Shown here: positions 3,387-31,263 of the stretch, one piece after another | How positions within the stretch are numbered: position 1 is the stretch's first letter | Layout: every line of letters starts with the position of its first letter | From: Alphaproteobacteria bacterium | Lineage (GTDB): Bacteria; Pseudomonadota; Alphaproteobacteria; Rs-D84 | DNA length: 32,000 nt | Assembly (NCBI GenBank): GCA_009784235.1 | Contig: WRCC01000002.1 | Location: 16,373 to 48,372, forward strand | Direction: 5' to 3' | Made by a program: the position numbers and the translations under genes | Notes under the pieces: generated by a model | Told to the model about the DNA's origin: nothing | What the model saw: the letters and a program-made list of their open reading frames with translations, nothing else | The model's database searches: none

Positions 3387-3421
3387 ATTTATGATTTCGA
3401 ATTTATGTTTTATGATTCCGG
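3387..3421. repeat. Heptamer-array module, ATTTATG family, copy C4
   Basis: atttatg atttcga atttatg ttttatg attccgg. It matches the mnmE copy at 5513-5544 at 28/32 positions. It ends 2 nt before the SD (aaggag, 3424-3429) of the CDGSH gene. Confidence 0.7.
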
Positions 3422-3435
3422 CAAAGGAGTCTTTA

Positions 3436-4137
3436 ATGTCCGAACAAAAATTACCATATATAAAAATCACAGAAAATGGGCCATATTTACTGTACGGCGC
3501 GACGAAAATTTCTGAAAAAATCATACTGACCGATGAAAATGGTATATCAGTAAAATACGGCGATGGAAAAACATTTGAAATAAAATCCGACCCGGTATGC
3601 CTGTGCCGATGCGGACATTCGAAAAATGCACCCTTTTGTGACGGCAGTCACGCAGACGCAATGTTTATCGGAACGGAAACGGCCGTCTTCACGCCAATAA
3701 TGAAACAACCGTCCGCCGAAGCAATTCGTGGCCCAACGCAAACATTATTGGACAACCAACAATATTGCGCTTTCGCACGCTTCTGTGACCGTGGCGGGCG
3801 AGTATGGAATTTGGTAATGGAAGGCGGCAAAGCAGCAGATAAATTATCCGCCGAAGAAGCCAACCTATGTCCCGCCGGGCGATTGATGATGTTTACAAAC
3901 GATGGTAAATTACTGGAAGAAAACACAGAACCACAAGTTCACACAATCGAAGATGGCGGATTGCATATCAGTGGACCATTATGGATTCGTGGCGGTATCC
4001 GCGTCGAATCCGCAGACGGCCGTTCGTACGAAGTTCGCCAGAAACAAACGTTGTGCCGATGCGGCGCATCCGCGAACAAACCGTTCTGCAACGGCGCACA
4101 CGCATCAATGCGATTCAAGGCAAAAACAGCGAAATAA
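3436..4137 (+). CDS. CDGSH-type iron-sulfur domain protein (two CDGSH motifs)
   Basis: Start chosen at ATG 3436, 6 nt after SD aaggag. The track start at 3391 lies inside repeat C4. Motifs: CRCGHSKNAPFCDGSH and CRCGASANKPFCNGAH. Confidence 0.9.
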   Translation: MSEQKLPYIKITENGPYLLYGATKISEKIILTDENGISVKYGDGKTFEIKSDPVCLCRCGHSKNAPFCDGSHADAMFIGTETAVFTPIMKQPSAEAIRGPTQTLLDNQQYCAFARFCDRGGRVWNLVMEGGKAADKLSAEEANLCPAGRLMMFTNDGKLLEENTEPQVHTIEDGGLHISGPLWIRGGIRVESADGRSYEVRQKQTLCRCGASANKPFCNGAHASMRFKAKTAK

Positions 4138-4291
4138 AAAGACACCATATTGTCCGAAGAATATGAAAAGAAATCAATTATATTGGGTTAGATACTGCGT
4201 ATTGCGAAGTTTTTGACGACAGAGTGTATACAAAATACATGACCGAATCAAAAACGAGCAAACGCAAAGTAGATGACTCGATAGAATTGAT

Positions 4292-5641
4292 TTATTTCCC
4301 AAGGCACAGTTGGCCAAATGTTGCATCCATAATTTCATCCGCGCCGATAACGCCCAGAATCCGCCCGATGGCATCCGCCGCGCGATTTACATGTTCGGCG
4401 AAAATATCTGGATTTAGGATTTCTGATTTATGATTTATGATTTTTAATTCATTCGCCGCTTCTTCCAACAATTCTTTCGCGCGCGCATTAACAACCACAT
4501 CCGATTCCGCACCGTCCAGCATTTCATGAACGCGTTGTTTTATCGCGTACAACAATTCCGGAATCCCTTCACTCGTCAGCGCGGAAACGCGTAGGGGCGC
4601 GTATTCGCGCCCTGGGGCGCAAGTATGCGCCCCTACATTCAAATCGCATTTATTATAAACGATGATTTCTCTATCCGCACCTGGGTAAACCACCCCGTCC
4701 GCGCCTCGCGGCGCGTCCACCCCTCCAAAGGAGGGAAATACACGCAAAACCAAATCTGCATTTTCGATTTCGGCGTTTGTTTTTTCGATTCCTATTTTTT
4801 CAATTTCATCCGTTGCATCACGCAATCCAGCCGTATCAGACAATCGCACCAAATATCCATCGATATCTATTTCAGCGGACACAACATCGCGCGTTGTACC
4901 CGGAATATCGGAAACTATCGCACGGGATTCGCCGACAAGACGATTAAACAATGATGATTTGCCCGCGTTAACCGGTCCGACCAATGCGATGTTAAATCCG
5001 CTGCGCACGGCGCGTGCGGCCGCGCTGCGCGCCAATACATTCGATATTTCATCATGCAATTTTTGCGTCCGCGCCACCAAAGTCTCACCGATATTCGCAG
5101 GGAGCTCATCGCTTGGATAATCCAGCATCGCCGCAGAATACGCCGCGATTTCAATCATCTGTAACCGCCAATTTTCATACACCACTGAATCCGCGCCGGC
5201 AGCAGAGCGCAATGCTGCACGCCTTTGCGCATCCGTACGCGAATCCAGTAAAGCGCACAGGCCATCAACTTCGACCAAATCCATTTTACCGTTATCAAAT
5301 GCACGCCGCGTAAATTCGCCGGGTTCGGCCATACGCGCGCCATGGCTGCGTAAGCAATCAAATAATTTTTGAATAACCGCATTCGAACCATGAACATGAA
5401 ATTCGACAACGTCTTCACCAGTAAAAGAATTCGGCGCGGCAAAATAAATCGCAATGGCGCGGTCAATTATATTGCTGTCGGCATCAATTAAGTCGGCAAG
5501 GTACGCGTGGCGATTTATGATTTCTGATTTATGATTTATGATTTGTTTGAATAATTTTTGCAAATACGTGCCAGATACGCGCACCACCGCAACGCCTGCA
5601 CGTCCATGTCCCGACGATAATGCAAAAATTGTATCGGTCAT
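4292..5641 (-). CDS. mnmE: tRNA modification GTPase MnmE (TrmE)
   Basis: Start at ATG 5641 (MTDTIFALSSGHGRAGVAVVRVSG). G1 GPVNAGKSSLFN, G2 GTTRD, G3 DTAG, G4 NKCD, G5 SAL, and the C-terminal CLGK motif. Carries three in-frame repeat insertions, listed as separate repeat features. Confidence 0.95.
   Translation of the reverse strand: MTDTIFALSSGHGRAGVAVVRVSGTYLQKLFKQIINHKSEIINRHAYLADLIDADSNIIDRAIAIYFAAPNSFTGEDVVEFHVHGSNAVIQKLFDCLRSHGARMAEPGEFTRRAFDNGKMDLVEVDGLCALLDSRTDAQRRAALRSAAGADSVVYENWRLQMIEIAAYSAAMLDYPSDELPANIGETLVARTQKLHDEISNVLARSAAARAVRSGFNIALVGPVNAGKSSLFNRLVGESRAIVSDIPGTTRDVVSAEIDIDGYLVRLSDTAGLRDATDEIEKIGIEKTNAEIENADLVLRVFPSFGGVDAPRGADGVVYPGADREIIVYNKCDLNVGAHTCAPGREYAPLRVSALTSEGIPELLYAIKQRVHEMLDGAESDVVVNARAKELLEEAANELKIINHKSEILNPDIFAEHVNRAADAIGRILGVIGADEIMDATFGQLCLGK
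4412..4446. repeat. Heptamer-array module, ATTTATG family, copy C1 (inside mnmE)
   Basis: atttagg atttctg atttatg atttatg attttta. The stretch 4411-4443 matches 5512-5544 at 32/33 positions. On the minus strand it encodes KIINHKSEILN. Confidence 0.9.
4591..4638. repeat. 48-nt GC-rich double-hairpin element, family A, copy A1 (inside mnmE)
   Basis: gtaggggcgcgtattcgcgccctggggcgcaagtatgcgcccctacat is identical to 5984-6031. It contains hairpins gggcgcg-tatt-cgcgccc and ggggcgca-agta-tgcgcccc, and its termini GTAGGGGCGC/GCGCCCCTAC are complementary. It encodes VGAHTCAPGREYAPL between G4 (NKCD) and G5 (SAL). Confidence 0.95.
5513..5547. repeat. Heptamer-array module, ATTTATG family, copy C2 (inside mnmE)
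   Basis: atttatg atttctg atttatg atttatg atttgtt. It encodes QIINHKSEIIN near the MnmE N-terminus. Confidence 0.9.
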
Positions 5642-5643
5642 TT

Positions 5644-5847
5644 TTACCTGTTCATACATTCTATGCATTTTGGCAGATGTTGTTGTAATATGGATTGTTC
5701 CCACAATTGTCTTTTCTGTTTCTGCATATCCTTAGAGACCGCACAATTCTGACAAGCCGTGGACAAATAGTACCCCCGCTTGCAGCCACAGCATTTGCAG
5801 TCATTTTCTACAACACGAATGGAATAAAGACCACATAGTTTTTTCAT
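5644..5847 (-). CDS. Small Cys-rich protein (67 aa), putative zinc-ribbon-like, unknown function
   Basis: MKKLCGLYSIRVVENDCKCCGCKRGYYLSTACQNCAVSKDMQKQKRQLWEQSILQQHLPKCIECMNR. Its ATG (5847-5845) overlaps the ruvA stop as ATGA, and its TAA ends 2 nt before the mnmE ATG. Cys pattern is C-x-CC-x-C ... CxxC ... CxxC. It fills the otherwise uncalled 200-nt gap between ruvA and mnmE. Confidence 0.4.
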   Translation of the reverse strand: MKKLCGLYSIRVVENDCKCCGCKRGYYLSTACQNCAVSKDMQKQKRQLWEQSILQQHLPKCIECMNR

Positions 5848-6413
5848 TTTGCAATCTCCTTTAATGCTAAACGCACCAATGCACCGGTATCGACATCCGG
5901 ATTTTCGCGGACCAATTTTTGCGCCAGTTCGGCGCAGTCCGCCCGGCGATAACCCAATGTTTCCAGCGCGGACAACAGGTCTTGTAGGGGCGCGTATTCG
6001 CGCCCTGGGGCGCAAGTATGCGCCCCTACATCAACCTTACCCTTTAATTCCACGATAATTTTTTCGGCGACCTTTTTGCCAACGCCCGGTGCGGATGAAA
6101 TCGTTTTTGCGTCCCCCGTCATAATTGCAGACATCAAAACATCTGGTTTCAGTGTCGATAAAATCGCCATCGCGACTTTTGGTCCAACGCCGGATACTGT
6201 GGTCAATTGATTAAATAAATCTTGCTGTGCCAGCGATGCAAATCCGAACAAACGAATTGAATCTTCACGGACAATGGTTTCAACCCAAAACGCCACAGTT
6301 TCGCCAATTTTCGAATATTCCGGCGTAAAAACTTTATACCCCACCCCATTAACCATCAGAATAATATATCCATCGCCGATATGGTCGATAATCCCTTGCA
6401 ATTTTCCAATCAT
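5844..6413 (-). CDS. ruvA: Holliday junction branch migration complex subunit RuvA
   Basis: Start at ATG 6413 (MIGKLQGII...GYIILMVNGVGYKV). HhH region LTTVSGVGPKVAMAILS ... ISSAPGVGKKVAEKIIVELK, and a C-terminal domain III (LSALETLGYRRADCAELAQKL). Family A repeat sits in the domain II-III linker. Confidence 0.95.
   Translation of the reverse strand: MIGKLQGIIDHIGDGYIILMVNGVGYKVFTPEYSKIGETVAFWVETIVREDSIRLFGFASLAQQDLFNQLTTVSGVGPKVAMAILSTLKPDVLMSAIMTGDAKTISSAPGVGKKVAEKIIVELKGKVDVGAHTCAPGREYAPLQDLLSALETLGYRRADCAELAQKLVRENPDVDTGALVRLALKEIAK
5984..6031. repeat. 48-nt GC-rich double-hairpin element, family A, copy A2 (inside ruvA)
   Basis: Identical 48 nt to 4591-4638, in the same orientation and the same reading frame (VGAHTCAPGREYAPL). 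Confidence 0.95.
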
Positions 6414-6462
6414 TGTGTATCCTTTTGGCGAATTATAAAGCAATTTATCAAAAAGGCAAGTT

Positions 6463-7179
6463 ATGGCAGGTCACAGTAAATGGCACAATATTATGCATCG
6501 CAAAGGCGCCCAAGACGCCGCGCGGTCAAGCATGTTCACAAAACTGGCGCGCGAAATCACAATGGCAGCCAAACTGGGCGACCCCAGTCCGGACAACAAT
6601 CCACGACTGCGATTGGCCATTCTTAACGCGCGAAAAAATTCCATGCCGAACGATAATATTAAACGCGCGATGGACAAGGCAGCGGACAAAAACACCGAAA
6701 GCTATACATCCGTTCGATACGAAGGATACGGCCCCGGCAACACACCAATTATTGTCGAAGCATTAACGGACAACCCGCGCCGCACCGTTCCGGATGTTCG
6801 CGCGATATTCGCGAAAAACGGCGGCAATATGGGTGAAGAAAACAGCGTATCATTTATGTTCACACGCCAAGGTCAGATTTTTTATTCAATCAAAGCCGCA
6901 TTGTCTGCTGATGATATGATGATGACAATAATGGATGCAGGCGCGGACGATTTGGAAACATCACCGGACGGATACATTGTAATAACAAAACCGGACGATT
7001 TTGCACATGTGCAAAAATCATTATCGGATAAGCTGGGCGAACCGGAACGCGCAGAATTATCATGGGCACCAAATATGCCGATTGATTTGGATGATGAAAC
7101 ATATACAAAACTAGAAAAATTAATCGACGCACTGGACGCGCATGACGATGTTCAAAAAGTATTTACCGCTGCGGCATAA
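6463..7179 (+). CDS. yebC: YebC/PmpR family DNA-binding regulatory protein
   Basis: MAGHSKWHNIMHRKGAQDAARSSMFTKLAREI...NPRLRLAILNARKNSMPNDNIKRAMDKA...YEGYGPG. The family signature runs the full length. Confidence 0.95.
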   Translation: MAGHSKWHNIMHRKGAQDAARSSMFTKLAREITMAAKLGDPSPDNNPRLRLAILNARKNSMPNDNIKRAMDKAADKNTESYTSVRYEGYGPGNTPIIVEALTDNPRRTVPDVRAIFAKNGGNMGEENSVSFMFTRQGQIFYSIKAALSADDMMMTIMDAGADDLETSPDGYIVITKPDDFAHVQKSLSDKLGEPERAELSWAPNMPIDLDDETYTKLEKLIDALDAHDDVQKVFTAAA

Positions 7180-7183
7180 ACAT

Positions 7184-7216
7184 TAAAAAAACCGCGCCGA
7201 ATGGTGCGGTTTTTAT
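7184..7216. terminator. Bidirectional rho-independent terminator
   Basis: aaaaaaACCGCGCCgaatGGTGCGGTttttattttt, lying between convergent yebC and the three-gene operon. Confidence 0.6.
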
Positions 7217-7599: not shown

Positions 7600-7626
7600 A
7601 ATTATCTCGTTTGTTTTTATTCACGT

Positions 7627-17947: not shown

Positions 17948-20451
17948 ATAATATTTTTTGCGCATCAAATCCGGCGCGTCTGCCGGATGCTTTGTGGGAA
18001 TTTTTATCCGGCCGCGATTTTTCAAACGATATTATATTTTTGCCGTCCCGGCGCGCTGTTCGCACAGTCGAACGCATGATTGTTGAAAAATCCGGCGCAA
18101 TATTATTGCCAAAATTGATAGCACTTGGCGAAGGTGCGGACGAAGATGATATCGATGCGCCGACCGATACTGTTTCCAATTTTGAACGAACACTCGTTCT
18201 GGCAAAAATGTTATCCGCATCGATGAATTCATCTGTGTCGGCCGCACTGCCCGTTGCGCGCGATTTGATTCGGATGACTGATTATTTGGAAAACGAAGGA
18301 ATTGATGCCGCCGACATAAATTGGTCCGATTTGGTTGGCGAAAAATATGCTGTGCATTTTCGGGACAAAGCACGATTCCTTGATTTGGCGGCCCGCGCCC
18401 TGCCCCTTGTATTCGCTGGGCGCGAGACATCGTCACAGCGCCGTAACAAAGATATACGCGGATGGATTGGCCATCTGAAAAATAAAACGTCCGGAAAAAT
18501 TATCGTATGCGGTTCAACCGGTTCTGTACCGGCGACAGCCGATTTGATGGCATACGTCGCTGGGCTTGATAGCGGATGCATTATTTTACCCGGGAAAATA
18601 ACATCTGCCAACCACCGACTACCAATCACCGACCCATATTATTCCGAAGCACAATTTCTACAACGAATAAACGCAGAACCAGATGACATTAAAATTATCA
18701 ACACCGGCGAAAATACAATAGATTTTTTAAACCACGCATTTTCCAATACATCTTCAAACTTCGAACTTCAAACTTTAAACTTCACAAGAATTGACTGCAC
18801 CCGCGAATCCGAAGAAGCCGAAGTTGTCGCAGAAATTACCGCGGATGCAATCGCTGAAAACAAGACTGTTTTAATCGTAACGCCAGATGCCGCCGCAAAC
18901 CAGCGTATTCGCGAATCATTCGCGCGCCGGAATATCACAGCCGATTTTTCCGGCGGAATATCTGGCGCCACATCACCGCTTGGGCGAATGATTTTACGAA
19001 TATTGGATGCCAGCGATGAAATTTATTCCGCATATAAAAAAACTAATCTTTACGGTGCGGTTATAAATATATTTGAAAAATCACACAGCGCAAAAATCAG
19101 TTTGTTTGATAACGAAGAACTGGTCACAATATTCGATACAATCCGCGAATTATCGGATATATTGCAAAACAATGATTTGGAATTGACCGCCGCGGATTTG
19201 CGAACGATTGTCGCGGACATGCTGTCATCCGCGCAAATTCGCCCGCCCATGATTGATAATGCGCGCATCTCTGTATTGGGCACGATTGAATCAAGGTTGC
19301 AGACCGCCGATATTGTGATACTGACCGGCCTGAACGAAGGCATGTTCCCAGCAATGGGCTATGAAAATCCATGGCTGCCGCGGCGAATATGCGATGAAAT
19401 CGGTCTGCCGCCACCGGAACGCAAGGTATCACTGATGGCGCTTGATTTTATAACATTATCATGCGCACGAACGGTCTATTGGACACGCAGCAAATCATCC
19501 GACGGCACAGTTACAACAGAATCACGCTTTTTGTCGCGTGTTGCAGTTGCATGTAGGGGCGCATGCAATCCGGGGTCCCCGCACGAACGAAGTTCGAGTG
19601 GGGTGGGTGCGTCCAGCACACCCCTACAAAACGCACGCGAACGCGATAATATTCCATTAAATCCGCTGGGTTATCGCGCACCAACGCCGCCGGCCAGCCG
19701 CGGCGATGTATGGGTTACTGAACTGGAATTATTAATCCATAATCCGTATGCTTTTTATGCGAAAAACATTTTGGGATTGCGTCCAAAAGACGACCCATGG
19801 AAACAAATCGGCGCCAAAGAATTCGGGATATTGGTTCATGATGTAATAGAGTCCATAGTCAACAGTCAACAGTCAACAGTAAATGATATCGTTGCGAAAC
19901 TGGATGCAAAGGCGCGGGAAATTTTGGAGCCCGGTTCAGTACTATTTCATTTTTGGCATAATCGATTTGTCGAAATGGCACCGGAAATTAAAAAATTAAT
20001 TGACCGCACGACCGGTAATTCGCGCACCGAAATCGCGGGTTCTGTTAATATCGCAGGACGCAATGTCCGTGCACGCGCAGATATGATTTTGTCCGATAAC
20101 ACAGGCGATTATGTCATAGATTTCAAAACCGGTGCAACGCCGTCAAAAGCGCAACTGGACGCGGGCAATATGCCGCAATTACCGCTGGAAGCATATATGC
20201 TGCAACGCGGCGGATTTGCCACCGCGCCGCAAACATCGAATATAGTTATCCAATTTTTACAATTAAAAAACCGTGATGTTCGAACGATTGAATATAGTGG
20301 CACGGACGCACAAAAAATGATTGATGCAGCGGTACAAAAAACATCCGAATTATTTGGTCGGTATAGCACTGATTTCGAGCCGTACGAATACCGCGAAACA
20401 TCGGATGGAAAATACAAAGCATACGACGATTTGGCAAGAATTGATGATTAA
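17935..20451 (+). CDS. addB: Double-strand break repair protein AddB (alphaproteobacterial type, PD-(D/E)XK nuclease C-terminus)
   Basis: Start at ATG 17935 (MRAINNIFCASNP...), overlapping the end of engB. The C-terminal block GDYVIDFKTGATPSKAQLDAGNMPQLPLEAYML is typical of alpha AddB. Contains three in-frame repeat insertions. No addA lies adjacent. Confidence 0.8.
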   Translation: MRAINNIFCASNPARLPDALWEFLSGRDFSNDIIFLPSRRAVRTVERMIVEKSGAILLPKLIALGEGADEDDIDAPTDTVSNFERTLVLAKMLSASMNSSVSAALPVARDLIRMTDYLENEGIDAADINWSDLVGEKYAVHFRDKARFLDLAARALPLVFAGRETSSQRRNKDIRGWIGHLKNKTSGKIIVCGSTGSVPATADLMAYVAGLDSGCIILPGKITSANHRLPITDPYYSEAQFLQRINAEPDDIKIINTGENTIDFLNHAFSNTSSNFELQTLNFTRIDCTRESEEAEVVAEITADAIAENKTVLIVTPDAAANQRIRESFARRNITADFSGGISGATSPLGRMILRILDASDEIYSAYKKTNLYGAVINIFEKSHSAKISLFDNEELVTIFDTIRELSDILQNNDLELTAADLRTIVADMLSSAQIRPPMIDNARISVLGTIESRLQTADIVILTGLNEGMFPAMGYENPWLPRRICDEIGLPPPERKVSLMALDFITLSCARTVYWTRSKSSDGTVTTESRFLSRVAVACRGACNPGSPHERSSSGVGASSTPLQNARERDNIPLNPLGYRAPTPPASRGDVWVTELELLIHNPYAFYAKNILGLRPKDDPWKQIGAKEFGILVHDVIESIVNSQQSTVNDIVAKLDAKAREILEPGSVLFHFWHNRFVEMAPEIKKLIDRTTGNSRTEIAGSVNIAGRNVRARADMILSDNTGDYVIDFKTGATPSKAQLDAGNMPQLPLEAYMLQRGGFATAPQTSNIVIQFLQLKNRDVRTIEYSGTDAQKMIDAAVQKTSELFGRYSTDFEPYEYRETSDGKYKAYDDLARIDD
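18752..18786. repeat. Heptamer-array module, CTTCAAA family, copy D1 (inside addB)
   Basis: cttcaaa cttcgaa cttcaaa ctttaaa cttcaca encodes SSNFELQTLNFT. It matches the reverse complement of the left arm of 25835-25869 at about 28/32 positions. Confidence 0.85.
19553..19627. repeat. 75-nt GC-rich palindromic element, family A-like, copy A3 (inside addB)
   Basis: gtaggggcgcatgcaatccggggtccccgcacgaacgaagttcgagtggggtgggtgcgtccagcacacccctac. It has the same GTAGGGGCGCAT...CCCCTAC termini as family A. An internal 12-bp hairpin ccccgcacgaac-gaa-gttcgagtgggg has one mismatch. 75 nt equals 25 codons (RGACNPGSPHERSSSGVGASSTPL). Confidence 0.8.
19850..19884. repeat. Heptamer-array module, AGTCAAC family, copy E1 (inside addB)
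   Basis: agtccat agtcaac agtcaac agtcaac agtaaat encodes SIVNSQQSTVN. Confidence 0.75.
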
Positions 20452-23023: not shown

Positions 23024-23032
23024 GGTTTTCTC

Positions 23033-23569
23033 TTACTTTGGCACCGGCAGACCCAGCTTGTTCAGCGGAATATACCCGAAATAATAATCACACCGAACAG
23101 AATTTATATAATCCAAAACATCCTTGTACCTTGGGTCCCTGAACCAATCGAACAACAGGTACATATATTCAACATCTATATTCAGCGGCGCAAGCAATTT
23201 TTTATATTGTTTTTTCTTAAAATCACAGGTTTGCAACTTTTCATCAACACTGCCAGGGGTTTGTTGAAATTTTGCCTCTACTATATACAAAACATTATTC
23301 GCAATTACATATATTGAATCATCCGGTAAAAGTTTTTTGGATAAAATAGTCTTCCAATCAATCCCGCGCAATGCAAGGAACCTGTACAAATCATGTTTTT
23401 TGAAAATATATGCGACTGATTTTTTATTATAAAAAACTTCCAAGAATTTATTTTTATCATGCGCCAGTGAATAGTTTTTTTGACGCGACAAAAAATCGGC
23501 CAAGTCGGTTTTTCCTTCGAAAACCAGGCCTGTTTTTGTATTCGCGCCGCCGATTCCGTCTTTTTTCAT
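23033..23569 (-). CDS. Putative type II restriction endonuclease (small PD-(D/E)XK nuclease)
   Basis: 178 aa from ATG 23569, or 182 aa from ATG 23581, which overlaps the MTase end. PD...(D/E)XK-like motif LPDDSIYVIANNVLYIVEAKFQ. It lies immediately downstream of a Dam-family MTase and looks AT-rich by eye. Specificity cannot be read from the sequence. Confidence 0.55.
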   Translation of the reverse strand: MKKDGIGGANTKTGLVFEGKTDLADFLSRQKNYSLAHDKNKFLEVFYNKKSVAYIFKKHDLYRFLALRGIDWKTILSKKLLPDDSIYVIANNVLYIVEAKFQQTPGSVDEKLQTCDFKKKQYKKLLAPLNIDVEYMYLLFDWFRDPRYKDVLDYINSVRCDYYFGYIPLNKLGLPVPK

Positions 23570-23570
23570 C

Positions 23571-24509
23571 TCAGCTCTCATAATTGGTTATTATCAGCTC
23601 GCGCACTTCTCCGCGTTTGGATGCATCGCTGTTTACTGCGCGCCGCGCCGACACTCTGTGTATATTATATCCAGAATACAGATTGTCAAAAAATAAATCA
23701 TTCGTATCATGATTTGTCGGATCGGAATTGGACAACATTTGCATTGCACCTGCAAAATCCGCCTTTGCAAATACATCGGACAGTCTTGCCTGATCGGCAT
23801 CGTTAAATCCGCTTTTCGAGTATGATTTGAAAGATGCTGTCGCGCTTATCGGGCGATATGGCGGGTCATAATAAATAAAAGCGTCTTTGCCCGCAAACTG
23901 CAAAGATTCAGAGAAATCAGCACATTTTATAATGGCATTTTGCAAAGCGGAACTGGCGGCATGCAAATTATCCGCATCGCAAATTGTCGGATTGTCATAT
24001 CGCCCCATGGGGACATTGAACATTCCGTGTGAATTAACGCGATACAGGCCGTTATAACAAGTCTTGTTAAGAAAAACTGTCAAAGCCGCCCGGCCGATAA
24101 AATCACGCGAATATTTATTGGTATCAACGCCTTTGTCGTACTGATTATATTTATCGCGCAGGAAATAAAACAATCGCTCTCTGTCCAGAGAATTATAAAC
24201 TTTCTGCAATATCTCCAGCTCGGAAATTAAACTATCAACATCATTTTTAATAACATTGTAAAGAATTACCAGTTCAGGATTTATATCGAACAGAAAATTC
24301 TCAAACACATTAAACTTGTTTGATATATCAAAGAATACCGCGCCGCCGCCAATAAAAGGCTCTATATATCTTTTTATCCCGCTTGCTTTTAGCTTAATTG
24401 GGTATAAATCCGAAATCGTTGGTAACAACTGCCCCTTGCCACCGACCCATTTAAGAGGTGGGCGCGCAAAATCCTTGTCATCGAAAAATTTCAACGCGCT
24501 GGTTTTCAT
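23571..24509 (-). CDS. Site-specific DNA-methyltransferase (adenine-specific), Dam/D12 class (alpha group)
   Basis: PPLKWVGGKGQLL, the AdoMet motif EPFIGGGAVFF, NKTCYNGLYRVN, and catalytic DPPY (IYYDPPYRP). Confidence 0.92.
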   Translation of the reverse strand: MKTSALKFFDDKDFARPPLKWVGGKGQLLPTISDLYPIKLKASGIKRYIEPFIGGGAVFFDISNKFNVFENFLFDINPELVILYNVIKNDVDSLISELEILQKVYNSLDRERLFYFLRDKYNQYDKGVDTNKYSRDFIGRAALTVFLNKTCYNGLYRVNSHGMFNVPMGRYDNPTICDADNLHAASSALQNAIIKCADFSESLQFAGKDAFIYYDPPYRPISATASFKSYSKSGFNDADQARLSDVFAKADFAGAMQMLSNSDPTNHDTNDLFFDNLYSGYNIHRVSARRAVNSDASKRGEVRELIITNYES

Positions 24510-25820
24510 TTATTCTTCCAAGTAATCTCTCAATGACTGGCCGGATAGTGCGTGGCCGCGGGCCGGCGTCTGGTTGCGGACGATTTGCGTTATGCGCGGA
24601 GACATAAATACCACCAGCTCTGCAAACGGCGATATCAGCGTTTCCGGTGTTTGCACGAATGCATGCGTAGGAATTCCAATAATCACATAATTATCACCGA
24701 TGGTCGACGGGATTGTATAAGATGCGATTTCGCCCTGATTCGTGCGCAGCGCAACCGTCGCGTCCAATTTTTTCATGCCTGCGTAATCGCCGAATTTCGC
24801 GGTCGCACCGATTATCAGGTTTGTTTCCAATCGTTCTTCGCGTGAACATTGCCCGATATCAAACCGCGATTGCCATCCGTTTGGTATTGAAAATGTACCC
24901 TGCGAAATCAAGACCACATTCGATTGTTGCGCCAAGAATGCCTGCAATGTTTTTGTATTTATTTCCGGACCAACAACCAGCGCGCGCCCAACAACCCCCG
25001 GTATCGACATACGGATATTCTGTTGCCCCAGCGCAGGCAACATATTCATCCAGATAATTGGATTGTCGCTGCGCGGATATACGCGATATACATCAATGTC
25101 CCATGCGATAATATATTTCTGTGCGCCCAAATCGGCAATAATGCGACGCACGTCACGTTCAGTCTGGAAATTGCCCGCAAATTCCATTGTTTTATCTTGC
25201 CAGTTAACCAGCAAGTTGCGAATTTCCGCACCGCGCATCGCATCAATCAAAGCCATAATAACAGATTCGTCGCGCGGCATTTTGACCAGCCATCGTGTCC
25301 GCCGCATTATGCGCAATTCGCGCGCATCATCATCGTATGAATAATAAGCGCGCCCCATCCGCGCAATCAGCGCGACCGCATCAGACAATTCGCCGGATTT
25401 TATATCGCCGGAAATTTTATCGATTATCGGCTCTTCCTCAATCACAACAATTTTCGTACCGGACAATAATTTTTCCAAAACTTCTTTGACGGTCTGATTT
25501 TGGAATGAAAAATTTTCAACCGCAAACCCTGGCAATTCATCGCCAGTACCCAGATTTATCATTTCAATGACTTCTTCGGGCAAATTAGACTTCACGCGCT
25601 GATTATCCCAGTCAACCGTACAGCGTTTCGGCAAATCCAGCGCAAACCGGCGTGCAGTATCGGTTGTCAACGCTGCCTTGCGCGGGAAAATCGGCACAGA
25701 CCGTTCATCGATAACCAGGTTATCAATAACGGTGACTAATTCAAAGTCAGGCACATTGTTGCGTGGCTGGCACGCCGCAACAATCAAACAACAAATAACC
25801 AACATATATATTCGTCTCAT
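24510..25820 (-). CDS. Outer-membrane lipoprotein with a secretin-like C-terminal region (function unknown)
   Basis: Lipobox LIVAAC. The C-terminus (...NVVLISQGTFSIPNG...DATVALRTNQGEIASYTIPSTIGDNYVIIGIPTHAF...AELVVFMSPRIT) recalls the end of secretin domains (...ELLIFITPRI). No pilus or secretion genes lie nearby. The stop abuts the MTase ATG (TAAATG). Confidence 0.75.
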   Translation of the reverse strand: MRRIYMLVICCLIVAACQPRNNVPDFELVTVIDNLVIDERSVPIFPRKAALTTDTARRFALDLPKRCTVDWDNQRVKSNLPEEVIEMINLGTGDELPGFAVENFSFQNQTVKEVLEKLLSGTKIVVIEEEPIIDKISGDIKSGELSDAVALIARMGRAYYSYDDDARELRIMRRTRWLVKMPRDESVIMALIDAMRGAEIRNLLVNWQDKTMEFAGNFQTERDVRRIIADLGAQKYIIAWDIDVYRVYPRSDNPIIWMNMLPALGQQNIRMSIPGVVGRALVVGPEINTKTLQAFLAQQSNVVLISQGTFSIPNGWQSRFDIGQCSREERLETNLIIGATAKFGDYAGMKKLDATVALRTNQGEIASYTIPSTIGDNYVIIGIPTHAFVQTPETLISPFAELVVFMSPRITQIVRNQTPARGHALSGQSLRDYLEE

Positions 25821-25834
25821 CCACTCGACCTTTT

Positions 25835-25909
25835 AAGTTTGAAGTAGGAAGTTTGAAGTTTGAAGAAATTATCTCTTCCGGCTTCAACCTTCAAACTTTC
25901 TCCTTTGAC
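25835..25909. repeat. Head-to-head dimer of the CTTCAAA/AAGTTTG heptamer module (copy D2)
   Basis: Left block 25835-25869 is aagtttg aagtagg aagtttg aagtttg aagaaat. The centre is tatct. Right block 25875-25909 is cttccgg cttcaac cttcaaa ctttctc ctttgac. Confidence 0.85.
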
Positions 25910-26220
25910 TAAATATTCATTACTTTTTCAAATTCTTCCAGTGTCATTTCGTGCACAGGCTTTTTGCTGGGCGTAACCCAATCTGATATTTCAGCAAATT
26001 CCGCGCGGTATTTTTCGATTTGCCCGCGCGTTTTTTCATCCGCACTGGTTCCAATTTTACCACCCATCGCGACCAACATTTCAAGTGTGTCCGCCGCAAA
26101 GAACCGCCCGGCATAATTTTCGATTGGCACACCACCCTTTTGGGTTGCAATCGCAGACATGACCGTTTTCATGTATTCATAAAACCCGGCCAAGTTATTG
26201 AACTTTTCTATATTAGTCAT
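25909..26220 (-). CDS. Hypothetical protein (103 aa)
   Basis: Start at ATG 26220 after SD aagggaa (MTNIEKFNNLAGFYEYMKTV...). I recognised no domain. Confidence 0.6.
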   Translation of the reverse strand: MTNIEKFNNLAGFYEYMKTVMSAIATQKGGVPIENYAGRFFAADTLEMLVAMGGKIGTSADEKTRGQIEKYRAEFAEISDWVTPSKKPVHEMTLEEFEKVMNI

Positions 26221-26254
26221 TTCCCTTGTCCCTCTTTCTGCATTATAAAAACTA

Positions 26255-26283
26255 TTGCCTGGGTAAAGCAATTAAATTATAAT
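26255..26283 (+). promoter_or_regulatory. Putative sigma70 promoter giving a near-leaderless mRNA for the 26293 lipoprotein gene
   Basis: TTGCCT (26255-60), a 17-nt spacer, then TATAAT (26278-83). The ATG follows only 9 nt later, and I saw no SD. Confidence 0.4.
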
Positions 26284-26292
26284 GCAATCACT

Positions 26293-27245: not shown

Positions 27246-27304
27246 ATATGGAACATAAAGCGAACCCCGCATAAATTGAATTAAATAAATATAACGAATT
27301 ATAT

Positions 27305-27333
27305 GAAAAAATAAAACCGCCACAACGGCGGTT
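27305..27333 (-). terminator. Rho-independent terminator of the tRNA operon
   Basis: Minus strand reads AACCGCCgttgtGGCGGTTttatttttt, starting 8 nt after the tRNA-Tyr CCA end. Confidence 0.65.
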
Positions 27334-27340
27334 AAATTTC

Positions 27341-27426
27341 TGGTGGGCATGGATAGATTCGAACCATCTCAGTCTAAGACAACAGATTTACAGTCTGCCC
27401 CGGCTCTCCGACTCCGGCGCATGCCC
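27341..27426 (-). tRNA. tRNA-Tyr (GUA)
   Basis: 86 nt: GGGCATG..GCAGA-CTGTAAA-TCTGT, a long variable arm, T-arm GATGG-TTCGAAT-CTATC, acceptor CATGCCC, and an encoded ACCA. Confidence 0.93.
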
Positions 27427-27437
27427 AAAGCAAATCT

Positions 27438-27512
27438 TGGTGCGGGCAGAGGGAATCGAACCCTCATCTCAAGCTTGGAAGGCTCGCATACTAGCCTTTG
27501 TACTATGCCCGC
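27438..27512 (-). tRNA. tRNA-Gly (UCC)
   Basis: 75 nt: GCGGGCA-TA-GTAC..GTAT-G-CGAGC-CTTCCAA-GCTTG-AGAT-GAGGG-TTCGATT-CCCTC-TGCCCGC-ACCA. Confidence 0.93.
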
Positions 27513-27529
27513 AGTGATTTTGCCGGTGC

Positions 27530-27557
27530 ATTATAACTATTTTTACCAAGAATGCAA
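27530..27557 (-). promoter_or_regulatory. Putative sigma70 promoter of the tRNA-Gly/tRNA-Tyr operon
   Basis: Minus strand reads TTGCAT (27557-52), a 16-nt spacer, then TATAAT (27535-30), 17 nt before the tRNA-Gly 5' end. Confidence 0.55.
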
Positions 27558-27567
27558 GTTTTATAGA

Positions 27568-27595
27568 TTGAAAAACCACTTCCATTTTTTATAAT
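27568..27595 (+). promoter_or_regulatory. Putative sigma70 promoter of the 27630 gene
   Basis: TTGAAA (27568-73), a 16-nt spacer, then TATAAT (27590-95). SD aaagga lies 6 nt before ATG 27630. Confidence 0.5.
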
Positions 27596-27629
27596 ATGCT
27601 CTTATCATGTAATTAACAAAGGATTGTAC

Positions 27630-27971
27630 ATGACCAAGATTTTCCGATTTTTGTTTGTCCCTGTTTTATTGTTCGCGTTAATGTCCGGCGCATCTGCCGA
27701 TTGGTGCCAGAAACTGGGCGGCGGGATGGAGCCTTGCGGCGGTAAACCAAACGACACATGGGTCGAATGTCACAGCGACTGGATGGGTGGTTCTATGGGC
27801 TGGTGCCTGCCGTCTAACAGTTCATCCGGAAAAAAGAAAAGCAACAACTCTATGACAACAACGCTGGTCGCGGTTGGTGTCGGCGTAGTATTCGTCGGCG
27901 CGATGTGGTATATTTTCCGCACACCTAAATCAGACCATAATCCCGGTCAAGTTAAATTGGTATCGTTTTGA
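27630..27971 (+). CDS. Hypothetical secreted/membrane protein (signal peptide, 4-Cys domain, C-terminal TM)
   Basis: MTKIFRFLFVPVLLFALMSGASA-DWCQKLGGGMEPCGG...CHSDWMGGSMGWC... followed by the TM segment TTTLVAVGVGVVFVGAMWYIF. Confidence 0.65.
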   Translation: MTKIFRFLFVPVLLFALMSGASADWCQKLGGGMEPCGGKPNDTWVECHSDWMGGSMGWCLPSNSSSGKKKSNNSMTTTLVAVGVGVVFVGAMWYIFRTPKSDHNPGQVKLVSF

Positions 27972-27982
27972 GAAACAAAATT

Positions 27983-28104
27983 GTCATTGCGAACACAGTG
28001 AAGCAATCCAGTTAATAAATTATTTTTATAAAATTGTAGGGGCGCATATTTGCGCCCCTTTATCAATCAACTGGATTGCTTTGTCGCTTACGCTCCTCGC
28101 TGTC
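27983..28104. repeat. Palindromic repeat family B, copy B2, with a family A-type hairpin nested in its loop
   Basis: Arms are gtcattgcgaacacagtgaagcaatccagtt (27983-28012) and aactggattgctttgtcgcttacgctcctcgctgtc (28069-28104). The loop contains gtaGGGGCGCAtattTGCGCCCCt (28036-28059). It fills the gap between two convergent genes. Confidence 0.8.
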
Positions 28105-28512
28105 TTAATTCGCACATCTGTTGCAAGAATTACGAACAACCTGGCGTTCAGATGTATTTCCAACATGCTGGTACACTGTTACCGGCTGATAAACCGCATA
28201 ATGATTAATTACTTCGCTGTGCGTATGAACGCGAACGGGTGCTGCGGCACGTTGTGCGCATGGCGCGGCAACGCGGGCTTGACCACAATTTGCACGCTGG
28301 CATCCACATGAACGTGCGGATTGCATAGATGTTACATGATAAACCGGCTGTTGTTGGATATTTTGAACACGTGCGGTTTCTTGCGTTGTCGTGCGAACGG
28401 TACGATAATAGCCAACAGATTGCCCGCCGTCGTGCGGGAAACCGCTGTCCGATGCCATTGCTGAACCCGCTGCAAACATTGCAATCATTGGTAAAATTAA
28501 CAATTTTTTCAT
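28105..28512 (-). CDS. Hypothetical secreted protein (135 aa)
   Basis: Signal peptide MKKLLILPMIAMFAAGSAMA and SD aaaaggag. Gln/Val/Cys-rich, with repeated VY(H/Q) motifs. I recognised no domain. Confidence 0.65.
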   Translation of the reverse strand: MKKLLILPMIAMFAAGSAMASDSGFPHDGGQSVGYYRTVRTTTQETARVQNIQQQPVYHVTSMQSARSCGCQRANCGQARVAAPCAQRAAAPVRVHTHSEVINHYAVYQPVTVYQHVGNTSERQVVRNSCNRCAN

Positions 28513-28536
28513 ATTAACTCCTTTTGGATTAAACCA

Positions 28537-28564
28537 AATATAGCACTTAATGTATAATTGTCAA
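28537..28564 (-). promoter_or_regulatory. Putative sigma70 promoter of the 28512 gene
   Basis: Minus strand reads TTGACA (28564-59), a 16-nt spacer, then TATATT (28542-37). Confidence 0.5.
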
Positions 28565-28640
28565 GTTTAATTTAAAGAATCAAATATGGCACTTTTACAG
28601 CCTTTAACATTGACCATGGACTTTTTGCCATGACAATTAA

Positions 28641-28665
28641 AAACACCCCTTTCGGGGTGTTTTTA
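28641..28665. terminator. Bidirectional rho-independent terminator (after the ligase gene)
   Basis: aaaaACACCCCtttcGGGGTGTtttt. Confidence 0.7.
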
Positions 28666-30243
28666 ATTATGCTGTAACGGATATGTGCCGGATTCCAGCC
28701 TTTCCCGCACAACATGATGTTTCACTTTTTGCGTGGATGTCAAAGGCAAGTCTTCCATAGTCATCGCAAAATGGGTCACCCATTTATACGACGCGACTTT
28801 TTTATTTTTCTCTGCGATTGCCTTGGCCAATTTATCCATCGTCATGCCTTGCTCAACTTGGAAAACGCCGTATGATACGGTTTTCCCACGAACCACATGT
28901 TCGAACACAGCAACATTCTTAACGCCTTTGATTTCCAGGAACATTGCTTCCAATTCATCTGGATACACGTTTTTCCCGGAATCCAAAACAATGATTTGTT
29001 TTTTACGACCATGAAAATGCAGTTCACCGTTTTTATCCATCGACACCAAATCACCCGTATTAAAAAACCCGCGCTCATCAAATACTTCGGAATTCGCCGC
29101 CGGATTGGATAAATATCCGCCGAACACTTGATGCCCGCGCAGCCACAAAACGCCGATGCCGGCATCGTTCTTTTCGCGGATTTCGCATTCGTTATTCGTA
29201 ATCGGTCCACCGAAAGCGTACGGCACGCGGCCTTTGCGCGGTTTCGATATGCAGATTGGCCCAACTGTTTCGGTCAAACCATATCCCTGGATAAATGTCA
29301 GCCCCAAACGTTCATAAAACTTTTCCACTTCTGGTTTCGTTGCGGCACCGCCGGCGATAAGCAGACGTGCACGGCCACCGAATACAGCCAGGACTTGTTC
29401 TTGAATTTTTTCGACCAAGAATCCCAGTCCGATTTTTTTCAGTGTATTTCCGTATTTCAGAACAATACGTGCCAACCACCATTTCTTTTTGGCCTTTATT
29501 CCGTCAATAATTTTATTGCGGAAAACTTCCCAAACGCGTGGCACGGCCGGAATAATATGCGGACGATATTTTTTAAAGTCGGCCAGAATTTCCGCCGGAT
29601 TAACCGTTGCTTGCAAAACAATATTTCCGCGGAATTCAATGGTTGCCAATATTTCAATCGCAAATCCATAAACGTGGTACATCGGCAAAAATCCATACAG
29701 AGTATCGCCACGATGTATCCATTCTGACATATCTTGCAAAGACGCTGCACATTCAACCAAGTTATAATGGGTCAATGGCACAATTTTCGGGTTTCCAGTC
29801 GAACCAGATGTGAACGACAATGTCGCAATATCCAGCGATTCAACCGCCGCCGGTTTCAATTTCGCCGGTGCGGCTTTGTCTTTGGATTCGATATCAAAGA
29901 ATTCGAAACTTTTCGTTTTATAGAAAAACTTCTTTTCCGCCGCAACGACTTTACAATCGGTTAATTTGGCCATATTGTCGTATTCAAACGGCGTCAAATT
30001 AGTATCCAGCAACAGACATTGTCCACCCAAATACCAAACTGCAAACGCGGTCAATGGGAATTCAGGAATATTGTGCGCCAAGATTCCAACGACGGAACCT
30101 TTGCCAACGCCCATCGCAGCCAGCGTGCCGGCGCGTTTTTTGACGCTTTCATTAAACTGTGTGTATGTGACATTTTCACGCGTCAGAAACACATGGTCCG
30201 GGGCGTCATTAACGGCCCGTTCCAAAAATTTATACATGTTCAT
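28663..30243 (-). CDS. AMP-dependent synthetase/ligase (long-chain fatty acid-CoA ligase-like)
   Basis: AMP-binding signature LSFTSGSTGNPK, plus GYGLTET, TGDL and the GRKKQIIVLDSGKNVYPDELE blocks. Confidence 0.88.
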   Translation of the reverse strand: MNMYKFLERAVNDAPDHVFLTRENVTYTQFNESVKKRAGTLAAMGVGKGSVVGILAHNIPEFPLTAFAVWYLGGQCLLLDTNLTPFEYDNMAKLTDCKVVAAEKKFFYKTKSFEFFDIESKDKAAPAKLKPAAVESLDIATLSFTSGSTGNPKIVPLTHYNLVECAASLQDMSEWIHRGDTLYGFLPMYHVYGFAIEILATIEFRGNIVLQATVNPAEILADFKKYRPHIIPAVPRVWEVFRNKIIDGIKAKKKWWLARIVLKYGNTLKKIGLGFLVEKIQEQVLAVFGGRARLLIAGGAATKPEVEKFYERLGLTFIQGYGLTETVGPICISKPRKGRVPYAFGGPITNNECEIREKNDAGIGVLWLRGHQVFGGYLSNPAANSEVFDERGFFNTGDLVSMDKNGELHFHGRKKQIIVLDSGKNVYPDELEAMFLEIKGVKNVAVFEHVVRGKTVSYGVFQVEQGMTMDKLAKAIAEKNKKVASYKWVTHFAMTMEDLPLTSTQKVKHHVVRERLESGTYPLQHN

Positions 30244-30410
30244 TGTATATAAACCTTATTTTTATAATTGTTTTTATATTGGACTGGCGGTATTATATAT
30301 TGAAAAATAATAAAAGCAAAATGAAAAATTGATGCGCTGCGGGAATTCTGCCCAGGACACAGTTTTTTAATTTTACTTTGTATTTATTTGATAATTATAT
30401 GGTGATTACT

Positions 30411-31208
30411 ATGATGATACTTTCAATTAATATTAATTCTATTCGTGCACACATGGAAAGCTTTCTGACCATTGCTGAATCTGGCGAATACGACACGATT
30501 ATCGTCCAGGAATTAAAAGTCGAAGACAATGGTTTCCCGCACATGATGTTCGAGCATCTGGGATACAATATCAAAGTGTTCGGCCAGAAATCCTGGAACG
30601 GCGTCGCGGTGTTTTCCAAATATTCCATCGAAGATGTCACGCGCAATATGCCGCATTTCGCCGACCCATCTGCACGCATGATTGAATGCGTGATTGACGG
30701 CAAATGGCGATTAATTAATGTTTATATGCCAAACGGCGAAAGCGTCGATAGTCCAAAGTTCCCGTACAAGATAGACTGGATGAATCATTTCAGCGACCAT
30801 ATTCATAAATTATTGAATTCCGAAGAACCGGTAATAATCGGTGGTGATTTCAATGTCGCAATCGAAGACCGCGATGTCTGGAATCCGAAACAGTATGAAG
30901 GAAGCTCTATCTCTGCACCGGCCGCACGCAAAATTATGCAAGAATGGCTGGATGGCCCCGGCGCGCCGGAGTATAGCGGAGGCGGATGGCTGGATTGTTA
31001 CCGGAAATATAATCCGGACGAAGAAAATCCGTGGACTTGGATTGGATATCGCGGCGGGTCGATACACAAAAACCACGGTCTACGATTGGATTATTTTATT
31101 ACGAACCATGCTGCATCAAAGCATGTGAAAAATTGCTATATCGATATGCGTCCGCGGGAACACCATAAACCAACGGACCATTGCGGACTTGTACTTGAAA
31201 TCGCATAA
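30411..31208 (+). CDS. xth: Exodeoxyribonuclease III
   Basis: Start at ATG 30411, so that MMILSININSIRA aligns with E. coli MKFVSFNINGLRA. Also IIVQELKV, NGVAVFSK, NVYMPNG, IGGDFNV, GLRLDY and PTDHCGLVLE. Confidence 0.92.
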   Translation: MMILSININSIRAHMESFLTIAESGEYDTIIVQELKVEDNGFPHMMFEHLGYNIKVFGQKSWNGVAVFSKYSIEDVTRNMPHFADPSARMIECVIDGKWRLINVYMPNGESVDSPKFPYKIDWMNHFSDHIHKLLNSEEPVIIGGDFNVAIEDRDVWNPKQYEGSSISAPAARKIMQEWLDGPGAPEYSGGGWLDCYRKYNPDEENPWTWIGYRGGSIHKNHGLRLDYFITNHAASKHVKNCYIDMRPREHHKPTDHCGLVLEIA

Positions 31209-31235
31209 CGATTTCAAGGAAGATAACAGATAGTA

Positions 31236-31263
31236 TATATGCTATCTAGTATCTAATATCTCT
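31236..31263. repeat. Short heptamer array (TATCTNN) overlapping the 3' end of tsaE
   Basis: tatatgc tatctag tatctaa tatctct. On the minus strand it encodes the last residues and the stop of TsaE (..RDIRY*). Confidence 0.35.

Follow-up and report, generated by a model that had tools for sequence, protein, structure and literature searches.

Heptamer arrays in the window

The stretch of DNA analysed here (hereafter, the window) comprises 32 kb of contig WRCC01000002.1 (positions 16,373–48,372; assembly GCA_009784235.1), which belongs to an alphaproteobacterial metagenome-assembled genome (MAG) from a termite gut. Short tandem arrays of 7-nt units lie within its mnmE and addB genes and in gaps between other genes, including the junction of mltA and dciA, where two of them form an inverted pair (Table 1). 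We refer to these arrays as heptamer modules. Arrays were called with Tandem Repeats Finder (TRF) and two independent lag scans, with 50 shuffles of the window as a control. TRF returned period-7 arrays of 3.4–5 copies, and their coordinates agreed with those of the heptamer arrays that a first-pass annotation had reported from the letters alone. In the lag scans, period 7 was the sole enriched tandem period, with 6–7 arrays in 32 kb; no arrays were found at periods 3–6, 8–11, or 13, one weak match was found at period 12, and the period-14 matches were the period-7 arrays again. None of the 50 shuffles contained a period-7 array. The terminal units were the most degenerate, as had been noted in the first pass. 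Of the two inverted dimers reported there, the one at 10367–10439 was clear, whereas the one at 25831–25909, located between a 120-aa open reading frame (ORF; 25909–26271, minus strand) and a 436-aa ORF (24510–25820, minus strand), was degenerate and folded weakly (z = −1.7).

The window DNA, arrays included, was also present in contigs of seven other assemblies, either 100% identical or with a single mismatch outside the arrays. Because these assemblies carry matching sequence through the arrays, the arrays are not an assembly artefact. Contigs L002 and L003, which are independent assemblies of the same strain, both end at 10369, inside the inverted pair; the modules therefore fragment short-read assemblies.

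Table 1. Heptamer modules of the window and the genes that hold them, with the corresponding period-7 arrays called by TRF
Feature	Coordinates	Strand	TRF array	Context
Degenerate ATTTATG-family module	3387–3421	+	3387–3417	Divergent intergenic region, 15 nt upstream of zf-CDGSH gene start (3436)
mnmE	4292–5641	−		Gene holding two AAATCAT modules
AAATCAT-family module in mnmE	4411–4446	−	4411–4443	Five AAATC cores; translated (K)IINHKSEILNP near C-terminus
AAATCAT-family module in mnmE	5512–5547	−	5512–5544	Translated IINHKSEIINR, aa 34–44
Inverted pair of AAATCAT modules	10367–10439	.	10367–10395, 10408–10439	Whole gap from mltA stop (10439) to dciA start (10368), both genes minus
addB	17935–20451			Gene holding CTTCAAA and AGTCAAC modules
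CTTCAAA-family module in addB	18752–18786	+	18752–18784	Translated SSNFELQTLNF
AGTCAAC (= CAACAGT) module in addB	19850–19884	+	19857–19880	Translated IVNSQQSTVN
Degenerate CTTCAAA-family inverted pair	25831–25909	.	25831–25865	Left arm 5 units, 82% match; right arm ~3 poor units

Distribution in related bacteria

Related loci were collected by an MnmE scan of genome collections, which gave 12 related gut MAGs (50–69% identity; termite, rabbit, and rumen) and 68 other Alphaproteobacteria, and by an MltA scan of metagenomes (80 loci, 668 kb). Arrays were abundant in the window and in L006, L007, L008, and L016, all four of which are termite-gut MAGs. They were also abundant in two MltA-anchored termite contigs, L205 (7 arrays in 3 kb) and L208 (2 in 1.5 kb), with a few sporadic arrays elsewhere among the MltA loci. 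Almost no arrays were found in L005, L009–L015, and the 68 other alphaproteobacterial loci (~1.2 Mb); L005, the closest relative sampled and likewise a termite-gut MAG, is without arrays. No period other than 7 was enriched in any relative.

Each genome favoured its own units, namely AAATGGC, AAACGCG, and AAATCGT in L006; AAATCAT, AACTAAT, AAAAGTG, and AAACCTT in L007; AATCAGT, AAATCAG, ACTGGGC, and AACTCCT in L008; and AATGAGC in L016. The arrays of these relatives were 28–45 nt long, and many stood as inverted pairs. In most relatives the orthologous sites were either empty or held another unit. The mltA–dciA junction is array-free in L009, L010, and ~70 further relatives, and the site equivalent to window position 3387 holds an ATTTATG module in L007 (3600–3635) and none in L005 and L006. 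According to the first-pass annotation, the same sequence at every orthologous site, with no empty sites and no additional copies, would have pointed to ancient fixed sequence; the existence of empty sites goes against that reading.

Phage contigs with the same modules

When viral contigs were searched with the AAATCAT module, 39 loci were recovered, most of which were single long microsatellites in AT-rich genomes. Three unrelated sets of phage contigs (L085, L111–L114, and L093/L099) were dense in five-core AAATCNN modules, with no other period enriched. L085 (IMG/VR UViG_3300020118_000364; 63% G+C) encodes DnaB, ParB, and terminase and carries eleven AT-rich 32-nt AAATCNN modules between positions 3000 and 12500, most of which finish 0–6 nt before start codons without a Shine–Dalgarno sequence. 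One 32-mer, AAATCATAAATCCTAAATCATAAATCATAAAT, is identical in L085 and the window (10408–10439). L111–L114 cover a late structural operon with genes for portal, major head, and adaptor proteins, and their intergenic inverted pairs folded at z = −10.8. In some phage contigs, arrays stood at almost every gene junction.

L093 and L099 were obtained from different samples, and their proteins are identical except for one ORF that spans an AAATCAT/AAATCAG array, in which the two contigs (L093, 6496–6582; L099, 12296–12347) differ by one 35-nt, five-unit indel. An all-against-all BLASTP comparison of ORFs from the array-rich loci matched L093 to L099 and L111/L112 to L114. The AAATC core is common to the alphaproteobacterium (45% G+C) and the phages (39–63% G+C). 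Viral scans for the CTTCAAA and AGTCAAC units yielded isolated arrays only, some of them long microsatellites, and no close cultured relative of the array-rich phages was found.

Architecture of the modules

The first-pass annotation had described the modules as blocks of ~35 nt made of five tandem heptamers. The shared architecture was borne out. A module consists of four full heptamers plus a partial fifth; in the ATTTATG/AAATCAT family it spans 32–35 nt and contains five AAATC cores. The 42 alphaproteobacterial arrays ranged from 28 to 45 nt (median, 37 nt), with none above 45 nt, and repeats of two or three units at period 7 showed no excess over periods 5–10 after these arrays had been masked. 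The AAATCNN modules begin with AAATC and finish with AAAT(C/T), and exactly five cores were counted in 3 of the 5 window copies, in 10 of the 11 modules on phage contig L085, and in 13 of the 18 on phage contig L114. The module is a discrete unit of ~32–35 nt with a family-specific phase, not an open-ended microsatellite.

Within the AAATCNN unit, positions 1–5, i.e., the AAATC core, are conserved and positions 6–7 are free. Positions 1, 2, and 4 were invariant in two phage sets and 89–97% conserved in the alphaproteobacterial and L093 sets, while positions 6 and 7 varied in 28–46% of units, except for position 6 in L093 (9%). The same unit recurred at separate loci within a genome: AAATCAT at 4 loci and AAACTTC at 2 in the window, and AAATGGC in L006, AATGAGC in L016, and AAATCAG in L008 at 2 loci each. 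This recurrence, the quantised size, the shared phase and length, and the same architecture in relatives sustain the first-pass proposal of one module class across different unit sequences rather than independent slippage events. A possible TATCTNN array (31243–31261), also proposed in the first pass, was rejected as a module. It has 2.7 units and a TRF score of 31 and fell under the thresholds of both lag scans; it was not counted because period-7 repeats of such low unit number are no more frequent than those of other periods.

Approximately 55–60% of the arrays lie in the ~10% of the DNA that is non-coding, where most abut a stop or start codon, and ~40% are intragenic. The modules fill short gaps between co-directional genes and often provide the stop or start codon themselves, and both array orientations were found beside start codons.

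The degenerate module at 3387 (TRF, 4.4 copies, 66% match) stands singly, and the region 3380–3440 folded no better than shuffled sequence (z = −0.36). A sigma-70-like match, by consensus only, lies at 3368–3395 upstream of the zf-CDGSH gene (TTTACG, 16-nt spacer, TATGAT). The ATTTATG unit serves as the −10 hexamer of this match, and an array oriented this way repeats a −10-like TATGAT at 7-bp intervals.

Inverted pairs and hairpins

The pair at 10367–10439 makes up the entire 70-nt gap between mltA and dciA. Its last unit supplies the ATG of dciA, and no Shine–Dalgarno sequence was found at the dciA start. The corresponding RNA is predicted to fold into a hairpin of −30.9 kcal/mol (z = −8.5). 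An intrinsic terminator was considered for this hairpin and rejected: it is AU-rich, has no U tail, and was not flagged as a terminator. At this junction, the unit of the inverted pair changes from genome to genome: AAATCAT in the window, AAATCGT in L006, AACTGAG in L205, and AATCAGT in L208. The two arms co-vary, reading CAT/ATG in the window and CGT/ACG in L006.

Together, the window, L006, L007, L008, L016, L205, and L208 hold at least eight inverted pairs. As in known hairpin-forming doublets, inverted pairs form predicted hairpins, with z-scores from −6 to −10.8 for pairs in the window, L006, and L114 and from −4.7 to −9.4 for those in L006 mnmE, L205, and L208. The L205 pair at 1350–1482 has one arm within the leader of mltA, and its other arm codes for the MltA lipoprotein signal peptide (ISLLSALCSVF); the hairpin therefore encloses the mltA start codon. 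Inverted pairs would form mRNA hairpins of 25–32 bp that bury start codons or bracket cistrons. Such hairpins probably alter translation coupling or mRNA processing, which in our view is a side effect or secondary use rather than the reason for the modules.

Copies within coding sequences

The first-pass annotation spoke of insertion into genes; the coding copies turned out mostly to replace native sequence. When 13 coding arrays were compared with array-free orthologues, 11 were within ~2 aa of the orthologous length and the other two added 5 and 8 aa. This length change is far below the 11–13 aa that the coding arrays encode. The modules lie in indel-prone segments of MnmE, AddB, and DciA and are translated. 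The two copies in the window mnmE mismatch at 1–2 of 33 positions. The one at 5512 (site 1) has the same length as the non-repeat segment IISNKDQIKPR of L005, and the one at 4411 (site 2) lies in a variable segment with a length equal to that of array-free orthologues. In addB, the CTTCAAA segment lacks one residue relative to the orthologues of L010, L015, and L016, and the AGTCAAC segment differs by 0 to +2 aa. Overall, mnmE site 2 and the two addB sites stay between −1 and +2 aa of their orthologues. The shortest MnmE, that of L007 (426 aa), contains three arrays. Among MnmE homologues, peptide periodicity occurred at lag 7 in 9 cases, as compared with 0–2 at the other lags from 3 to 11.

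Read in frame, every 21 nt of AAATCAT repeats include one TAA stop. The unit that would supply it reads CAG instead of CAT in each of the two mnmE modules (unit 3 in the 5512 copy), so the in-frame TAA is gone, and the equivalent unit in the L007 orthologue reads CCG. Surviving copies occupy two settings: the gaps that separate co-directional genes, which they lengthen, and indel-prone protein segments, where in-frame stops have been edited out. Although the mnmE genes of the window and L007 are 64.6% identical at the DNA level overall, 43 of 45 nt agree over the site-1 module and the following 12 nt. This patch is the best-matching 45-nt stretch of mnmE between the two, and 13 of its 14 same-residue codons are identical, as compared with 46% gene-wide.

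Different units re-use the same sites. Ahead of its G4 motif, mnmE carries an array in each of L006, L007, L008, and L016, with a different unit in all four, and one internal site of dciA is occupied by AAACGCG in L205 and by AAGAGGT in L208. In L006 mnmE (10976–11095), two AAACGCG arrays that are perfect reverse complements of each other bracket the conserved NKCD (G4) motif and form a perfect 32-bp stem (−69 kcal/mol, z = −9.4). Coding selection cannot maintain such a pair, which therefore argues for templated copying between the arms.

The variable sites of mnmE also carry repeats of another kind. At 4591–4636 of the window, a GC-rich, near-perfect palindrome lies in frame (22-nt arms, 2-nt loop, 86% complementary), and other GC-rich in-frame insertions occur at the same variable sites in relatives, for example in P0004, P0011, and P0013 and, at site 1, in L006 and L008. 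These GC-rich repeats are a second class of in-frame repeat in the lineage, similar to the Rickettsia palindromic elements (RPE). One MnmE homologue, P0002 (676 aa, 71% identical), contains extra DUF559 (PF04480) and PF18741 endonuclease-type domains.

Other features of the window

Rfam gave no family for the modules in the window or in three array-rich phage loci; its only matches in the window were two adjacent tRNA genes (27344–27512, minus strand). In a 592-aa ORF (12364–14142, minus strand), an FtsA-like N-terminal portion is followed by a complete ribulose-phosphate 3-epimerase, and the same 592-aa product is called in three other assemblies. At 23033–24509 (minus strand), a D12-class (Dam-like) adenine methyltransferase stands beside a small PD-(D/E)XK protein, with an 11-nt overlap of the two ORFs; they may constitute a restriction-modification pair.

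Origin of the modules

The first-pass annotation had named three candidate mechanisms (a non-autonomous mini-element family, templated insertion, and binding-site arrays) and left the choice among them open. We tentatively favour templated copying of modules of ~30–35 nt combined with slippage in the unit register; the copying step, as well as any function, is what we infer from the patterns above. New copies would arise from an existing module through short-patch gene conversion or template switching with a tract of ~30–35 nt. A copy would be placed in sequence that is free to vary and would survive only where that sequence is unconstrained. The inverted partner would result from copying from the nearby complementary strand, and slippage in multiples of 7 nt would homogenise or resize arrays where the reading frame allows it.

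Several observations weigh against templated copying. The process is not strictly length-preserving, because intergenic gaps grow (~70 nt at the occupied mltA–dciA junction, as compared with ≤19 nt at empty ones) and the two dciA copies add residues, although fewer than the 12–13 aa that they encode; strict length neutrality was accordingly dropped. Module density is uneven, with no arrays in the 19 kb that flank the window on the same contig. The eight assemblies of the window strain showed no copy-number polymorphism, gain, or loss. Pfam and NCBIfam searches of the window ORFs, together with precomputed Pfam matches, covered 51 kb of the 498-kb contig and gave no match to a transposase, a tyrosine transposase associated with repetitive extragenic palindromes (REP; the enzyme is abbreviated RAYT), a reverse transcriptase, or a ribbon-helix-helix protein; thus, the co-occurring enzyme or DNA-binding protein that the first-pass annotation had recommended looking for was not found there. 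The BLASTP comparison revealed no protein common to the array-rich phage and bacterial loci. Finally, the retention of the AAATC core across genomes of 39–63% G+C looks like purifying selection for binding, for which neutral copying is insufficient. Clustering of the families along the window, considered as a sign of local spread, was not significant by our estimate, and we make no claim from it.

The conserved core leads to a different explanation, which we regard as possible but doubtful: that the modules are binding-site arrays for a multimerising nucleic-acid-binding protein, kept as cis-regulatory elements at gene starts. One model for such a binder is the ribbon-helix-helix protein omega of plasmid pSM19035, which recognises uninterrupted series of 7-bp heptads (WATCACW) arranged as direct or inverted repeats, several of which are needed for function (PMC9499535, PMC2441792); another is a single-strand-binding oligonucleotide-binding (OB) fold of the cold-shock or S1 type, with ~7 nt of RNA per subunit. 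The AAATCNN modules resemble omega arrays in that their heptads are contiguous, can be direct or inverted, and combine a conserved core with free positions, and the unit, when rotated to AATCATA, agrees with WATCACW in all but one of its 7 bases. The two free positions, the recurrence of exactly five cores in very different genomes, the AT-rich modules immediately before starts without Shine–Dalgarno sequences in L085 despite its 63% G+C, the mnmE patch conserved at the DNA level, and the co-varying hairpin arms are likewise consistent with a binder, and in Nostoc the deletion of heptamers had modest effects on reporter regulation, for which a binding partner was proposed (bioRxiv 10.1101/2022.06.06.494920). 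A specific binder is nevertheless a poor fit because many unrelated units occur per genome, in both orientations, with copies inside genes. At least three unrelated units in one small genome, and a dozen more in relatives, would each need a binder of their own; the occurrence of both orientations beside start codons speaks against a single reader at the RNA level; and the two copies in mnmE and two in addB follow no obvious regulatory logic. L005 and the non-termite gut relatives L009–L015 do without arrays, no candidate binder was found in the 51 kb of contig, and the genes of the phage loci that were examined gave no ribbon-helix-helix match.

It is unlikely that the modules are ordinary long simple sequence repeats (SSRs) that arose by independent slippage at each locus, with a 7-nt preference set by the polymerase. 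In repeat-rich prokaryotes, long SSRs are most often heptanucleotides, which has been put down to slippage tied to a 7-nt polymerase footprint (Mrazek et al. 2007, as cited in PMC4679880 and PMC4692102). The degenerate terminal units agree with slippage, as does the multiple-of-7 indel between the otherwise identical phage contigs L093 and L099, and the same step forms part of the copying model. Plain slippage does not account for arrays that are quantised in size, fixed in phase, shared as families between loci, paired in inverted orientation, and present in coding sequence. The size distribution shows neither an excess of 2–3-unit repeats nor any of the 42 alphaproteobacterial arrays beyond 45 nt, separate loci share unit, phase, and core number, and AT-rich AAATCNN arrays stand in a phage of 63% G+C. 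Inverted pairs are frequent, one of them a perfect 32-bp pair within a gene; 7-nt steps would shift the frame of mnmE and addB; and the eight assemblies agree in copy number.

A non-autonomous mobile element resembling REPs, their doublets (REPINs), or miniature inverted-repeat transposable elements (MITEs), moved by a dedicated enzyme encoded elsewhere in the genome or in phages, is very unlikely. The defined ends, the fixed size, the singlet and inverted-doublet forms of several families, the lineage-specific burst, the presence in phages, and the intergenic gain of approximately one element length all recall such an element. A classical insertion element fits poorly because target duplications are absent, the arms are non-palindromic, and the length change in genes is small. 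The flanks of more than 40 AAATCNN modules contained neither target-site duplications, a check that the first-pass annotation had called for, nor the terminal inverted repeats of MITEs. Unlike REPs, single modules contain no palindromic unit, each arm being a direct repeat. Coding copies add less than their own length, and an insertion of 32 nt could not be in frame. No RAYT, IS200/IS605-type, or other transposase was found in the 51 kb of contig.

Signals spread by biased DNA uptake and homologous replacement, parallel to the DNA uptake sequences (DUS) and uptake signal sequences (USS) of other bacteria, would account for mostly length-neutral coding copies in variable segments, inverted pairs between genes, and unit 'dialects' in related genomes (AAATCAT, AAATCGT, and AAATCAG), but are hardly credible given at least three unrelated units within 32 kb instead of one genome-wide signal per species, arrays at almost every gene junction of some phage contigs, and a density so uneven that 19 kb of flanks have none; moreover, we know of no 33-nt tandem uptake signal.

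Templated copying may also be part of something broader, although we consider this improbable. In certain bacterial lineages and their phages, an as yet undescribed 'writing' process could copy modules of 32–35 nt, or their reverse complements, over unconstrained sequence, even in essential genes and largely without changing length; the template could be, for instance, a short single strand of DNA or RNA, or the copying could fall to a polymerase specialised in template switching. If so, the heptamer repeats of cyanobacteria, Xanthomonas, and Beggiatoaceae described below would be footprints of one mechanism.

Comparison with known heptamer systems

The modules are a real, lineage-specific class of the same kind as the short tandemly repeated repetitive (STRR) sequences of cyanobacteria, the GGGAATC repeats of Xanthomonas, and the TAACTGA repeats of Beggiatoaceae. 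The first-pass annotation knew of no such architecture in a proteobacterial housekeeping context; that claim of novelty is not supported, as heptamer arrays have already been described in Xanthomonas (PMC4692102) and Beggiatoaceae (PMC4679880). In X. campestris and X. axonopodis, GGGAATC occurs at ~185 loci per genome, with a mode of four units (range, 2–26) and ~70 inverted pairs (Rehm et al. 2015, PMC4692102). Between 89 and 93% of these loci are intergenic, mostly between co-oriented genes, and 7–11% overlap ORFs; only period 7 is over-represented, and the unit has both conserved and free positions (GGGANTN) (PMC4692102). Both systems are dispersed tandem heptamers in short arrays, with inverted pairs and period 7 only. 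They differ in that Xanthomonas, a gammaproteobacterial plant pathogen, has one G-rich, quadruplex-capable unit, whereas the uncultured gut alphaproteobacterium has several AT-rich units per genome; in copy number (2–26 versus ~4–5); and in the intragenic share, which is 7–11% in Xanthomonas and ~40% here, where the copies are translated in conserved housekeeping genes.

In a genome of the marine Beggiatoaceae, 169 TAACTGA arrays of 2–6 units mostly precede start codons by only a few nucleotides, and a Shine–Dalgarno sequence is often missing there (MacGregor 2015, PMC4679880). The repeat is also found in some cyanobacteria and Bacteroidetes, a patchy spread that suggests horizontal transfer, and some arrays overlap stop codons or lie in ORFs (PMC4679880). 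The AACTGAG/AACTGAA array at the mltA–dciA junction of L205 is one base away from this unit. Beggiatoaceae have a single unit with one inverted pair, and most of their intragenic copies are confined to the ends of proteins or to hypothetical ORFs rather than being internal to essential enzymes.

The addB module at 19850–19884 has the unit CAACAGT, which we take to be that of STRR3 in heterocystous cyanobacteria (Mazel et al. 1990). As with the modules here, several STRR families occur per genome, whereas the copy number of the cyanobacterial arrays varies widely and the phylum is a different one. To our knowledge, cyanobacterial STRR sequences have not been described as length-neutral in-frame replacements in housekeeping genes. 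In Nostoc, TTCAAAA in 3–4 copies lies within 100 nt of 21 gene starts, and eight copies of GACYAAT overlap the recO start (bioRxiv 10.1101/2022.06.06.494920).

Among other repeats, REPs, bacterial interspersed mosaic elements (BIMEs), and REPINs are short, abundant, and intergenic, occur as singlets and inverted doublets, and form hairpins between co-transcribed genes (PMC3116915). A REP is an imperfect palindrome mobilised by RAYT, whereas each arm here is a direct tandem repeat without self-complementarity. The RPEs of Rickettsia are in-frame repeats in conserved protein genes that are tolerated in permissive regions. They are palindromic, ~100–150 bp long, and add 30–50 residues; the modules here are 33 nt, non-palindromic, and mostly non-lengthening, and none of the 13 coding arrays added tens of residues. 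The mnmE palindrome at 4591–4636 is a closer analogue of RPE than the heptamer modules are. Plasmid pSM19035 has three arrays at promoters and a known cognate protein, as opposed to the many arrays, unrelated units, and intragenic copies found here.

For several features we found no prior description: many unit families built on one quantised design; the large proportion of copies that are translated in essential genes with little change in length; the occupation of one site by different units; perfect inverted pairs inside coding DNA; and the recurrence of the module design in phages. In practical terms, such arrays break metagenome assemblies and alter the sequences of marker proteins such as that encoded by mnmE. 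Over the 35 years in which cyanobacteria, Xanthomonas, and giant sulfur bacteria have been seen to carry dispersed heptamer arrays, neither a mechanism nor a function has been assigned to them. Overall, the quantised five cores, fixed phase, conserved core, re-used sites, and coding and phage copies of the present lineage constrain any explanation of these systems, argue against plain slippage, and make a templated-copy or specific-binder model testable.

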